Below, one piece after another: positions 53,035 to 57,945 of a stretch of DNA of 64,000 bases. Under the pieces are notes generated by a model. It searched no databases. It saw only the letters and a program-made list of their open reading frames with translations, and was not told where the DNA came from. Both the position numbers and the translations under genes were made by a program. Position 1 is the stretch's first letter; the number at the start of each line of letters is the position of its first letter. The stretch lies in the NCBI RefSeq assembly GCF_055900595.2, contig NZ_CM148325.1, one strand, 5' to 3'.

Positions 53035-55461
53035 TTAAACCTTTTCGATCTGGACGAGATTGCTGTGCGACGGGTTTCCCTTTGCCAGCGGTGAAGGGCG
53101 GTGAGAGGTCAGAATATTGATGCTGCCACCGTGATCGACCCGGTCACCAAACATATCCGCTTTAAGCCACGCACCTTGCCCGATGGCGGTAACGCCAGGC
53201 AGAATACGCGGAGTCACTTTTGCGACAATGCGCATTTCTCCATTATTGTTAAATACCCGCACTGTATCGCCATGACGGATACCACGTGCCTGAGCATCAA
53301 TGGGGTTGATCCACACCTCTTGTGGGCAGGCCTGCTGTAACACATCAATATTGCCGTAGCTGGAGTGGGTACGCGCTTTGTAGTGGAAGCCCGTTAGCTG
53401 CAGTGGATAGGTTTTCCGCAGGGGATCGTCCCAGCCATCAAAACCTGGGGTATACGCAGGAAGGGGATGAATAATTTCATCTTTTTTCAATTCCCAGGTA
53501 TCCGCAATCGTCGCCAGTCGTTCAGAATAAATTTCGATTTTTCCCGAAGGTGTTTTCAACGGGTTTGCCTGTGGATCTTCACGGAATGCGCGGAAAGCGA
53601 CGTAATGTTCTTCCGGGCATTTTTTCTTAAAGATCCCGGTCGTTTTCATCTCCTCGTAGTCCGGCATCTCAGGGTTACGTTCCTTCGTTTTCGCATGGAG
53701 ATATTTGATCCATTCATGCTGGCTGCGACCTTCAGTAAAAGTTTGATAAACGTCTGGTCCTAAGCGTTTCGCGACTTCACTCAGCATCCAGTAGATGGGT
53801 TTGCGTTCAAATTTTGCCGAGGTGGCGGGTTGGGCGAGGATCACATAGCCCATATTCCCTGCAGATTCATGAGAGATAAGGTCTTCTTGCTCTGTTGGCA
53901 TCAGGTCGGGCAACAGGATATCGCAATACTTAGCCGAGGCCGTCATGAAGTGGTCAATGCCAACAATCATCTCGCACTTGCTGTCATCCTGAAGCACATC
54001 ATGGGTGTGATTGATGTCGCCATGTTGATTGATCAATGTGTTACTGGCGTAGCACCATAAAAACTTGATGGGGACATCCAGTTTTTCTTTTCCACGAATA
54101 CCATCACGGGTCGCGGTCATTTCCGTACCGTGGTCGATGGCATCTGTCCATGTAAAGACGGAAATCTGCGTTTTAACGGGATTATCAAGCATCGGGAACC
54201 ATTCGACCCCCAGATCCCAGCTACCTTCGCGTACACCTGAGTTGCCGCCGTTTATGCCGACGTTACCGGTGAGAACGGAAAGCATGGCAATAGCGCGGGA
54301 CGTTTGCTCACCGTTGGAGTGTCGTTGTGGCCCCCAACCCTGACAAATATAAGCAGGTTTTGCTGAACCGATCTCTCGTGCCAACTGGATAATTTTTTCT
54401 GCCGGGATGCTGGTGATTTTTGCTGCCCATTCCGGCGTTTTAGCAATGCCGTCAGGCCCTTCGCCCAGAATATAGGCTTTATAATGCGCGTTACGTGGTG
54501 CGCTGGGGGGCAGCGTTTTTTCATCGTAACCAACACAATATTTGTCGAGAAATGGCTGATCGACCATGTTTTCCGTAATTAGTACCCAGGCAATCGCACA
54601 GGCCAGTGCGCCATCGGTGCCAGGGCGAATGGGTAGCCATTCATCTTCACGCCCGGCAGCTGTGTCGTTATAACGTGGATCAATGACGATCATGCGTGCG
54701 TTTGAACGTTCGCGGGCTTGCTCGACGTAGTAAGTGACACCACCGCCGCTCATCCGCGTTTCTGCCGGGTTATTTCCGAACATAACGACCAGCTTCGTAT
54801 TGGCGATATCATCCGGGCTGTTGCCATCATTGGCACCGAACATATAACTCATTGCGGCACTGATCTGTGCGGTACTGTAGCTGCCATAGCGACTGAGAAA
54901 ACCACCACAAGAGTTCATCAGACGGTACGGGACGTTTGAGTTGGTGATGTTTCCGCCATCTACGCCTGTTCCGTACAGGACATGTACAGCCTCATTTCCG
55001 TAATCTTTTAGGATCCGCCGAAGATTATCACTGATGGTATCCAGGGCTTCGTCCCAACTTATCCGTTCAAATTTACCTTCACCGCGCTTGCCGACGCGCT
55101 TCATGGGATATTTCAGCCGATCAGGATGATTCATCCGTCGGCGGATAGAGCGCCCGCGTAAACAGGCCCGAACCTGATGATTACCGTAAACGTCGTCACC
55201 TGTCGTATCAGACTCCACCCAGTACACAGTGTCATCTTTCACATGCAAACGTAACAGACAGCGGCTCCCGCAGTTAACGGTGCAGGAACTCCAGACCGCT
55301 TTCTCTTCTACCGGAGCCTCTGCCGCTCGGACCATTTGGGAAAATGGCAGAGTGAAAGCACTGCTTGCCAGCGCGAGACTGCCAAGTGCGGAGGTTTTCA
55401 TCAGACTTCTACGGCTGATTTCAGCCTTCATGAGCGCCTCTGTGGTATGGATTTTCATCAT
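53035..55461 (-). CDS. ynfF: DmsA-like molybdopterin oxidoreductase catalytic subunit, paralog 2
   Basis: 808-aa ORF with twin-arginine signal (ISRRSLMKTSALGSLALA); true start may be one codon in. Confidence 0.92.
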   Translation of the reverse strand: MMKIHTTEALMKAEISRRSLMKTSALGSLALASSAFTLPFSQMVRAAEAPVEEKAVWSSCTVNCGSRCLLRLHVKDDTVYWVESDTTGDDVYGNHQVRACLRGRSIRRRMNHPDRLKYPMKRVGKRGEGKFERISWDEALDTISDNLRRILKDYGNEAVHVLYGTGVDGGNITNSNVPYRLMNSCGGFLSRYGSYSTAQISAAMSYMFGANDGNSPDDIANTKLVVMFGNNPAETRMSGGGVTYYVEQARERSNARMIVIDPRYNDTAAGREDEWLPIRPGTDGALACAIAWVLITENMVDQPFLDKYCVGYDEKTLPPSAPRNAHYKAYILGEGPDGIAKTPEWAAKITSIPAEKIIQLAREIGSAKPAYICQGWGPQRHSNGEQTSRAIAMLSVLTGNVGINGGNSGVREGSWDLGVEWFPMLDNPVKTQISVFTWTDAIDHGTEMTATRDGIRGKEKLDVPIKFLWCYASNTLINQHGDINHTHDVLQDDSKCEMIVGIDHFMTASAKYCDILLPDLMPTEQEDLISHESAGNMGYVILAQPATSAKFERKPIYWMLSEVAKRLGPDVYQTFTEGRSQHEWIKYLHAKTKERNPEMPDYEEMKTTGIFKKKCPEEHYVAFRAFREDPQANPLKTPSGKIEIYSERLATIADTWELKKDEIIHPLPAYTPGFDGWDDPLRKTYPLQLTGFHYKARTHSSYGNIDVLQQACPQEVWINPIDAQARGIRHGDTVRVFNNNGEMRIVAKVTPRILPGVTAIGQGAWLKADMFGDRVDHGGSINILTSHRPSPLAKGNPSHSNLVQIEKV

Positions 55462-57945: not shown

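Follow-up and report, generated by a model that had tools for sequence, protein, structure and literature searches.

The question raised by this locus is whether two similar catalytic genes that sit side by side in one operon are recent copies still exchanging sequence, or old relatives that merely remain neighbors. It arises from the 64,000-nucleotide stretch of DNA analyzed here (the window), in which two 808-codon open reading frames lie in tandem on the minus strand (Table 1), and in which a first-pass annotation had seen a tandem duplicate liable to unequal recombination or gene conversion. The best explanation, which we regard as very probably correct, is that the window carries the canonical and already known Escherichia coli ynfEFGH-dmsD operon for selenate/tellurate reductase, that ynfE and ynfF are old paralogues and no recent duplicate, their split being older than the diversification of the ynfE genes sampled across Enterobacterales, and that they have since descended as independent orthologous lineages with no detectable gene conversion. 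Because these are known old paralogues without sign of sequence exchange, the pair is a real but ordinary observation of a textbook operon.

Table 1 Features of the ynf locus, in coordinates of the window.
Feature	Position	Strand	Description
FNR-like box TTGATATGGATTAA	58045-58058	-	~105 nt upstream of ynfE start; consensus match only
ynfE	55519-57945	-	predicted 808-aa Tat-exported Mo-bisPGD/[4Fe-4S] catalytic subunit, selenate/tellurate reductase
YnfE twin-arginine motif SRRTLVK	57895-57915	-	residues 11-17, from translation
YnfE Ser196 codon, YSTAQ motif	57358-57360	-	predicted molybdenum ligand, from alignment only
ynfE-ynfF spacer	55462-55518	-	57 nt, read from sequence
RyhB-complementary stretch	55458-55478	-	covers ynfF ribosome-binding site and start codon; predicted duplex
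ynfF	53035-55461	-	predicted paralogous catalytic subunit, 808-codon ORF
YnfF twin-arginine motif SRRSLMK	55396-55416	-	residues 16-22 of the 808-aa ORF, from translation
YnfF Ser196 codon	54874-54876	-	predicted molybdenum ligand, in the column of YnfE S196 and DmsA S205
ynfG	52407-53024	-	four-cluster Fe-S electron-transfer subunit common to YnfE and YnfF; TIGR02951 DMSO_dmsB, 266 bits
ynfH	51551-52405	-	membrane anchor/quinol oxidase subunit; Pfam DmsC PF04976, E = 2e-126
dmsD (ynfI)	50894-51517	-	Tat proofreading chaperone for DmsA, YnfE and YnfF; NCBIfam NF008632, 342 bits

The gene names and the paralogy proposed in the first-pass annotation are borne out by NCBIfam, Pfam, RefSeq annotation and BLASTP alike. 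YnfE scores 1797.9 bits on NCBIfam NF041885 (selenate_YnfE, cut-off 1675) and YnfF 1774.6 bits on NF041884 (selenate_YnfF, cut-off 1650); when the models are swapped each protein scores 1480 bits, ~300 lower. On TIGR02166, the model for DmsA/YnfE-type Mo-bisPGD reductase catalytic subunits (cut-off 778), the two reach 1398 and 1286 bits, respectively, and on the DmsA model 1348 and 1315 bits, both under its cut-off of 1600. The Pfam domains Molybdop_Fe4S4, Molybdopterin and Molydop_binding are all present in both proteins, and each begins with the twin-arginine signal that had been described. The single downstream ynfG/ynfH/dmsD set, likewise as described, was identified by Pfam and NCBIfam matches; these genes for an Fe-S subunit, a DmsC-type anchor and a DmsD chaperone lie immediately 3’ and co-directional, with spacers of 1-60 nt, as in an operon. 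RefSeq names a 99.2%-identical gene ynfE, in an annotation and gene neighborhood identical to those of the window, and places the starts of ynfF at the second ATG (55458, giving 807 aa) and of dmsD at 51508. DmsD is described as the chaperone for DmsA, YnfE and YnfF (PMC5203670, PMC10609526), and it binds these twin-arginine signals (PMC5203670).

What would the two catalytic subunits do? Alignment places a four-cysteine cluster motif at Cys56/60/64/96 of YnfE and Cys60/64/68/100 of YnfF, and a serine predicted to ligate molybdenum in both proteins: Ser196 of each aligns with Ser147 of the Rhodobacter DMSO reductase DorA (1eu1) and with Ser205 of the DmsA precursor, which is Ser176 in older numbering. 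A PDB search returned no DmsA, YnfE or YnfF structure, the best matches being Rhodobacter DorA and TorA. The genes would thus encode alternative Tat-exported catalytic subunits with Mo-bisPGD, a four-cysteine iron-sulfur motif and a serine molybdenum ligand. Going by the DmsABC paradigm and by published genetics, either subunit would be matured by DmsD, exported with YnfG and docked on the quinol-oxidizing anchor YnfH, yielding two isoenzymes that reduce selenate and tellurate. Selenate/tellurate reductase activity has been reported in vivo (Fujita 2021, as cited in PMC12096835; also PMC5203670), the two proteins have been described as paralogous selenate reductase isoenzymes, deletion of E. 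coli ynfEF abolishes selenate reduction (PMC12724226), and in Salmonella YnfE is the main enzyme with a minor contribution from YnfF (PMC5203670). For E. coli, the weight given to YnfF beside YnfE is taken from these genetic studies. Unlike ynfE, ynfF encodes a remodeled loop adjoining the predicted molybdenum-ligand serine, with ITNSNVP where YnfE has 168-MTRS-SPSASAV, and the suggestion that the copies may have diverged in substrate is plausible from sequence. The two genes offer a clean natural comparison for working out how isoenzymes with a common electron-transfer module differ.

The similarity of the two genes is best judged separately for protein and DNA. YnfE and YnfF align by BLASTP over 801 residues with 71% identity, 85% positives and 1229 bits, far beyond chance, and their longest identical runs are 26, 19, 19 and 18 residues. 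The long identical stretches that had been noted are therefore real in the proteins, with runs up to 26 residues, but do not extend to the DNA, where the longest exact match is 17 nt. Overall nucleotide identity is 69%, third codon positions agree at 45%, and 30-codon windows range from 57 to 82%, so that by run length, top window and third positions no near-identical tract links the genes. In megablast searches of ynfE or ynfF against loci with the other gene or dmsA, no cross-match was obtained. For this reason, the ~288 extra places matched by the ynfE query across genomes are not ynfF tracts; they are largely copies of ynfE split by an island, with short dmsA matches perhaps a further source.

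Tests for exchange between the genes point the same way. Quartets of E. coli against Salmonella, Citrobacter and Pseudocitrobacter gave 233-324 sites supporting orthology, and the 31-58 sites of the kind expected from concerted evolution show no excess over the 45-69 in the control topology. When the between-genome E-F distance is subtracted from the within-genome one, the difference hovers around 0, so that paralogues are not locally closer than orthologues, and divergence between E. coli and Salmonella is equal for the two genes (E-E 0.222, F-F 0.224). Within E. coli, 13 allele pairs out of ~5,300 showed no clustered SNPs derived from the paralogue and no conversion tracts. The minor allele in these 13 carried the paralogue’s base at 0.51 and 0.43 of sites, above a naive 0.33; this excess was not taken for conversion, since the sites are dispersed and it can be put down to transition bias. 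Also rejected as conversion were 20 SNPs that separate the window’s ynfE from its nearest relative, in which ynfF is identical, because they mark one side of a boundary of ordinary recombination between strains, which extends upstream with 77 mismatches in 13.7 kb.

Could gene conversion or unequal crossing-over nevertheless still act on the E. coli pair, generating tracts and copy-number variation? The tandem same-strand layout and the 71% protein identity would suit such a process, as would one apparent unit deletion, in Escherichia whittamii, and six concerted sites of the E. coli/Salmonella quartet that cluster within the last 40 nt, where micro-conversion at the extreme 3’ end is possible. 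Against it stand the 17-nt limit on exact matches with third positions near saturation, the failure of either gene to match the other by megablast, the negative quartet and population tests, and the absence of an E/F tail-fusion junction modeled on E. whittamii from all 5,426 E. coli genomes. That junction is the only fusion type sought, and up to ~31 genomes could hold hybrids joined elsewhere; the rows inspected among them proved to be IS-mediated deletions. We consider ongoing exchange extremely improbable, and the low DNA identity and the negative quartet and allele tests lend no support to the proposal that recombination still acts on the two genes.

Copy number across E. coli was surveyed in complete genomes, 5,322 of 5,426 of which (~98%) contain the locus, with a median of one matching place per genome. 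Among 5,323 matching records, just 8 reach an identity of at least 99% over the gene pair. The top match is strain Z0117EC0005, whose ynfF is 100% identical to that of the window; the window strain comes from a less common lineage and has both catalytic genes intact. Elsewhere, ynfF bears two internal deletions in 546 genomes of the ST131 lineage (including EC958 and JJ1886), ynfE has a homopolymer frameshift in 137 genomes (O26 and relatives), and a 6.5-kb integrase island splits ynfE in 114-154 genomes, its cargo giving no match in PADLOC or Pfam besides the integrase. Further losses involve IS elements. Every loss examined is thus an IS, island, frameshift or internal-deletion event and none is an E/F recombination, which also counts against ongoing exchange. 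The first-pass annotation had held that uniformly low identity without conversion tracts, together with a copy number fixed across strains, would speak against its proposal: the first part is essentially what was found, whereas copy number is not strictly fixed. YnfE and YnfF would be redundant enough for whole E. coli lineages to drop one or the other. Major pathogenic lineages are left with one working catalytic gene, ST131 without ynfF and O26-type STEC without ynfE, and the island-bearing group that includes UMNK88 is without a working ynfE. Given this lineage-specific loss, phenotypes and expression data ascribed to ynfE/ynfF depend on the strain.

How old, then, is the duplication? Neighbor-joining trees recover the E clade with 99.5% bootstrap support and the F and DmsA clades with 100% each, and the position of ynfF outside the whole Enterobacterales ynfE clade indicates that the split is ancient. 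Across Enterobacterales, the mean E-F distance (0.30) exceeds the largest E-E distance (0.245). An alternative is a later origin: ynfF would have arisen as a tandem copy of ynfE in no lineage but the ancestor shared by Escherichia, Salmonella, Citrobacter amalonaticus and Pseudocitrobacter, and would then have changed in a rapid burst of neofunctionalization, the single-gene state being ancestral. Among 80 species loci, true ynfF orthologues are indeed confined to those four groups and most genera have ynfG directly after ynfE; moreover, ynfF retains the ancestral “...AAGGTTTAA GGAGTAGCC ATG” junction to ynfG and lies farther from outgroups than ynfE. The latter difference is only 1.4-5 points, far below the burst of ~25% amino-acid change that a late origin would demand, and at present ynfF evolves more slowly than ynfE (F-F distances are below E-E distances in the same genera). 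The E clade from which ynfF is excluded, at 99.5-100% bootstrap, includes Budvicia and Yersiniaceae, and the N-terminus of ynfF is DmsA-like and unlike that of YnfE (see also PMC5203670). A late duplication is for these reasons unlikely. The trees are exclusively distance-based, and a later duplication followed by a burst of faster change along the ynfF stem is a formal possibility beside the ancient split that we prefer.

Escherichia whittamii has a single catalytic gene whose last ~12 nt and following spacer are of ynfF type. It looks like a precise deletion of one unit, joined within the conserved 3’ end, and is the nearest thing to the predicted recombination event, but in a different species. 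The same arrangement would be seen if no secondary deletion had occurred and the gene represented the ancestral ynfE-ynfG layout or an import from a single-copy genus. The tail and spacer (...GAGAAGGTTTAA GGA.TA.CC.ATG) follow ynfE in many single-copy genera, which means that the junction is not uniquely ynfF-derived. However, the E. whittamii gene matches E. coli YnfE at 96% identity and its ynfG matches at 98%, both flanks of the locus are colinear with E. coli at 87-88%, and the 10-nt spacer GGAGTAGCCC recurs unchanged between ynfF and ynfG of E. coli. In addition, ynfE and ynfF of Salmonella stand equally far from their E. coli orthologues, which places ynfF in the Escherichia-Salmonella ancestor. 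An ancestral or imported single gene is accordingly distinctly improbable, and we favor deletion of one unit.

We tentatively raise the possibility, which we hold to be less probable than its opposite, that genes of the DmsA/YnfE/YnfF type end in a recurrent recombination joint for whole units or modules, made up of their conserved final ~80 nt and the junction to the Fe-S gene. If so, this would be where catalytic-gene units or Fe-S/anchor modules are lost, copied or exchanged; ynfF would be an ancient third paralogue made patchy by repeated precise excisions of one unit, with E. whittamii a recent excision. Budvicia diplopodorum contains a 1,449-bp, 100%-identical block spanning the 3’ end and the Fe-S and anchor genes, which, unless it is an artefact of assembly, would be the reciprocal, duplicative case. 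Gain and loss of modules at the 3’ end of the catalytic gene, across the family, could explain how respiratory operons diversify.

The two genes may also have gained separate regulation, through RyhB pairing at the ynfF start in the E-F spacer. Genera that have just one catalytic gene lack any equivalent of this spacer, and in them ynfG starts 10-14 nt after ynfE. With RyhB taken from K-12 and located by Rfam, its core is predicted to form 17 pairs with the ynfF start (dG -20.8 kcal/mol), a value equalled by 1.2% of 1000 shuffles; full-length RyhB gave a duplex no better than shuffles, so significance holds only with a single-stranded core. The predicted duplex agrees with the published repression of ynfF by RyhB, for which a -60 to +24 ynfF-lacZ fusion was used (PMC4666370). 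Upstream of ynfE, the FNR-like box has one mismatch to TTGAT-N4-ATCAA, and the operon has been described as predicted to be anaerobically transcribed (PMC5203670). An Rfam scan of positions 50000-59000 gave no match.

The locus can be set beside three kinds of known system. The ynfEFGH-dmsD (ynfEFGHI) operon is covered by Lubitz & Weiner 2003, Guymer et al. 2009 and Fujita et al. 2021, as cited in PMC12096835 and PMC5203670. The operons of E. coli K-12 and Salmonella LT2 are alike in gene order, sizes, Tat signals and domains, and their neighbors match those in the window, with ynfD upstream and clcB downstream; the window locus has ~97% nucleotide identity to K-12 and no difference of substance. 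E. coli DmsABC has the same three-subunit design, the common chaperone DmsD, the serine ligand and the four-cysteine cluster motif. DmsA shares 67% identity with YnfE and 65% with YnfF, DmsC shares 56% with YnfH, and DmsB matches YnfG at 94% of protein, 81% of DNA and 51% of third positions. Conversion between ynfG and dmsB was considered and rejected on this 51% third-position identity; the genes have one exact run of 37 nt. Unlike DmsABC, the ynf operon combines each Fe-S/anchor set with two catalytic genes and also includes dmsD. A tandem catalytic pair with one Fe-S/anchor/chaperone set is also found in the ynfE-dmsA-dmsB-dmsC-dmsD operons of Serratia, Rahnella and Ewingella (layout read in loci L070, L072, L075-L077, L080 and L081), where the ynfE orthologue again comes first but the second gene is no YnfF: it is orthologous to DmsA, with 80-82% identity to the E. 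coli protein.

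The locus is a well-known and already described operon that the first-pass annotation rightly identified, naming two 808-codon open reading frames with twin-arginine signals as ynfE and ynfF and the genes that follow as ynfG, ynfH and dmsD. Both frames are present on the minus strand at exactly the stated coordinates, their products carry the motifs SRRTLVK (YnfE) and SRRSLMK (YnfF), and frames of 205, 284 and 207 codons lie 3' of them. Among public genomes the closest is that of E. coli Z0117EC0005 (99.6% identity across the pair), in which the run is annotated ynfE, ynfF, ynfG, ynfH and dmsD, with ynfD upstream and clcB downstream. 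The two proteins are 71% identical (BLASTP), each has the trio of Pfam domains expected in catalytic subunits with Mo-bisPGD and a [4Fe-4S] cluster, and each scores ~300 bits lower on the NCBI model of the other than on its own. The observation and the names are therefore correct, based on the coordinates, annotation, domains and own-model scores above cut-off.

Coordinates of the ynf genes and of related features in public genomes
Feature	Sequence	Coordinates	Strand	Remarks
ynfE	window	55519-57945	-	808-codon ORF; NCBI curated YnfE model 1798 bits, cut-off 1675
ynfF	window	53035-55461	-	808-codon ORF; NCBI curated YnfF model 1775 bits, cut-off 1650
ynfF remnant	L002 (AVS0662)	4001-5573		E. 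coli ST131; window equivalent 53035-55461
ynfF remnant	L089 (EC958)	5264-6833		E. coli ST131; window equivalent 53035-55461
6.5-kb element in ynfE	L099 (E. coli E7)	479-6948		also UMNK88, UMNF18
Single catalytic gene	L005 (E. whittamii Sa2BVA5)	8001-10440
Two tandem operon copies, shared block	L084 (Budvicia diplopodorum D9)	10332-11780; 14450-15898

The same annotation proposed that the pair shares long identical stretches and is a substrate for unequal recombination or gene conversion. Identical stretches do occur in the proteins, where they reach at most 26 residues, but not in the DNA, where exact matches extend to 17 nt at most. Nucleotide identity is 69% (45% at third positions) in a codon-aware alignment and ranges from 57% to 82% per 30-codon window. 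Informative sites were counted in quartets formed by the ynfE/ynfF pairs of Salmonella arizonae, S. diarizonae, Citrobacter amalonaticus and Pseudocitrobacter; 233-324 sites pair E with E and F with F, as orthology predicts, whereas 31-58 favor concerted evolution as against 45-69 for the control (third) topology, and in none of the quartets was the within-genome E-F distance clearly below the between-genome distance. The single irregularity comes from the E. coli/Salmonella quartet, where six "concerted" sites cluster in the final 40 nt; this signal is weak once multiple windows are allowed for. Across 13 ynfE and 11 ynfF alleles of E. coli, paralogue-matching polymorphisms are scattered, with at most two in a row. 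No conversion tract was detected in the pairwise alignment, the quartets or the E. coli alleles. A search of 5,426 complete E. coli genomes matched the pair in 5,322, the median number of matching places being one. Among the records inspected no extra copy was identified; 15 records show a second place that matches ynfF. One plasmid record matched both genes. With low nucleotide identity, no tracts detected and no extra copies identified, the proposal of ongoing unequal recombination or gene conversion is largely refuted in E. coli on the annotation's own terms.

Conversion was also considered, and rejected, as the source of the 20 ynfE differences from the closest relative, in which ynfF is identical; these reflect an ordinary inter-strain recombination boundary and continue upstream. 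From ynfF leftwards to ~49528, where the alignment breaks at an IS region, the window is 100% identical to Z0117EC0005, whereas from ynfE rightwards it is ~0.8% diverged, which places the boundary at the ynfE/ynfF junction. In Z0117EC0005 (locus L001) an IS200/IS605 tnpA and a truncated clcB (L001 1-1789; L001 1893-2351) adjoin dmsD, and window 47747-49535 has no alignment to this stretch (compared with L001 1-1789).

The age of the pair was approached through a survey of one genome per species, in which the five operon proteins were mapped on 80 loci, drawn from across Enterobacterales, that carry an orthologue of ynfE. True ynfF (89-91% identity to the E. coli protein) was found only in Salmonella, C. 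amalonaticus and Pseudocitrobacter, and the commonest layouts among genera are ynfE-ynfG-ynfH-dmsD or just ynfE-dmsD. In seven loci of Serratia, Rahnella and Ewingella the gene directly 3' of ynfE encodes an orthologue of DmsA (80-82% identity to the E. coli protein) and is followed by B, C and dmsD, so that the operon is ynfE-dmsABC-dmsD, unlike ynfEFGH-dmsD. In a bootstrapped, distance-based neighbor-joining tree, YnfE (99.5%), YnfF (100%) and DmsA (100%) are each monophyletic and YnfF falls outside the entire YnfE clade. A recent duplication of ynfF followed by a burst of change is unlikely, since E-F distances average 0.30 whereas E-E distances reach 0.245 at most, the outgroups are only 1.4-5 points further from one paralogue than from the other, and where both genes are compared in the same genera ynfF is now the slower-evolving one.

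Loss of one gene or the other is frequent within E. coli and specific to lineages, and a 2026 pangenome study independently places both among the metabolic genes most often pseudogenised (PMC13322260). A 1,570-bp ynfF remnant with a broken frame, present in 546 of 5,426 genomes (10%), is the product of two clean internal deletions of 580 bp (ynfF nt 718-1297) and 274 bp (nt 2072-2345); since its carriers include JJ1886, O25:H4 strains and EC958, this loss is that of the ST131 lineage. A 2025 J Bacteriol study reported "ynfF" expression in EC958 (PMC12096835); the gene in that strain is a pseudogene. The O26-type loss of ynfE is the reciprocal of the ST131 event: an A7-to-A6 homopolymer slip at nt 1816 (~window 56130) shifts the frame in 137 genomes (2.5%), among them O26:H11 str. 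11368 and other O26/O103-type STEC, and ynfF is intact in both such loci inspected. In 114-154 genomes ynfE is split at the same position, nt 1411 (~window 56535), by a 6.5-kb element in which a 525-aa tyrosine integrase adjoins one end, accompanied by five hypothetical genes; its cargo gave no credible Pfam match (one below cut-off) and no PADLOC match. The remaining losses examined are IS-mediated deletions, and recombination between ynfE and ynfF lies behind none of these events.

The only event resembling the predicted recombination occurs in a different species, E. whittamii, and would depend on microhomology, not on long homologous stretches. Both flanks of the E. whittamii locus are colinear with E. 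coli at ~87% identity, and its single catalytic gene is ynfE-like over its full length (81-91% to ynfE versus 46-75% to ynfF per window, the first window, at 74%, excepted). However, its last ~12 nt, GAAAAGGTTTAA, are of the E. coli ynfF type, and the 10-nt spacer to ynfG, GGAGTAGCCC, is the E. coli ynfF-ynfG spacer. The simplest reading would be precise deletion of one 2,484-bp unit, with the joint falling inside the 10 nt AGATCGAAAA common to both 3' ends. The same tail and spacer follow ynfE in single-copy genera, so the junction alone is no proof of loss. The rationale for loss is instead the equal divergence of E. coli and Salmonella at ynfE (E-E 0.222) and ynfF (F-F 0.224), which places ynfF in their common ancestor. 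When a synthetic junction copying the E. whittamii gene was searched against the E. coli genomes, none matched it over its full length at ≥99%.

Other genera provided separate observations. In Budvicia diplopodorum D9 the order is ynfE-G-H followed by dmsA-like-G-H-dmsD, and a 1,449-bp block, from 84 nt before the catalytic stop through the Fe-S gene and into the anchor gene, most of which it covers, is 100% identical between copies, whereas the catalytic genes themselves are just 50-80% identical; the block could reflect recent duplication or conversion, or else an artefact of assembly. Six independent contigs in Enterobacter and Kluyvera drafts end 0-220 nt past the ynfE stop, at the ynfG start, and Salmonella ynfG is nearer to E. 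coli dmsB (86.1% nucleotide identity) than to E. coli ynfG (83.2%). The two findings are a hint that some genera carry ynfG and dmsB as near-identical repeats, which may have been homogenised. E. coli ynfG (window 52407-53024) and dmsB are 94% identical in protein and only 51% at third positions. The reciprocal lineage losses, the probable E. whittamii deletion, the Yersiniaceae ynfE-dmsABCD operons and the Budvicia block are small additions rather than discoveries.

Regulation of the two genes, as judged from sequence, has diverged too. The 57-nt ynfE-ynfF spacer and the ynfF start contain a predicted 17-pair match to the RyhB core (dG -20.8 kcal/mol, equalled by 1.2% of shuffles), which agrees with the published repression of ynfF translation by RyhB (PMC4666370), and an FNR-like box lies ~105 nt upstream of ynfE. 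[quoted passage not shown] PMC12096835 cites Fujita 2021 for ynfEF as tellurate reductase genes too.

The predicted Mo ligand Ser196 (YSTAQ motif) is kept in both proteins and aligns with Ser147 of Rhodobacter DorA and Ser205 of DmsA. There are 48 positions invariant in 23 YnfE and in 5 YnfF sequences that differ between the groups, and the least conserved stretch is a loop 20-30 residues ahead of Ser196. YnfE Met168, Thr169 and Arg170 correspond to DmsA Met147, Thr148 and Arg149 (older numbering; offset checked by alignment), positions at which mutagenesis by Simala-Grant and Weiner in 1998 reportedly changed substrate specificity. For this reason, and given the loop differences, the suggested divergence in substrate between YnfE and YnfF is plausible: the YnfE loop, GGNMTRS-SPSASAV, is like the DmsA loop, GGTMTRSWPPGNTLV, whereas the YnfF loop reads GGNITNSNVP and has a 5-residue deletion.
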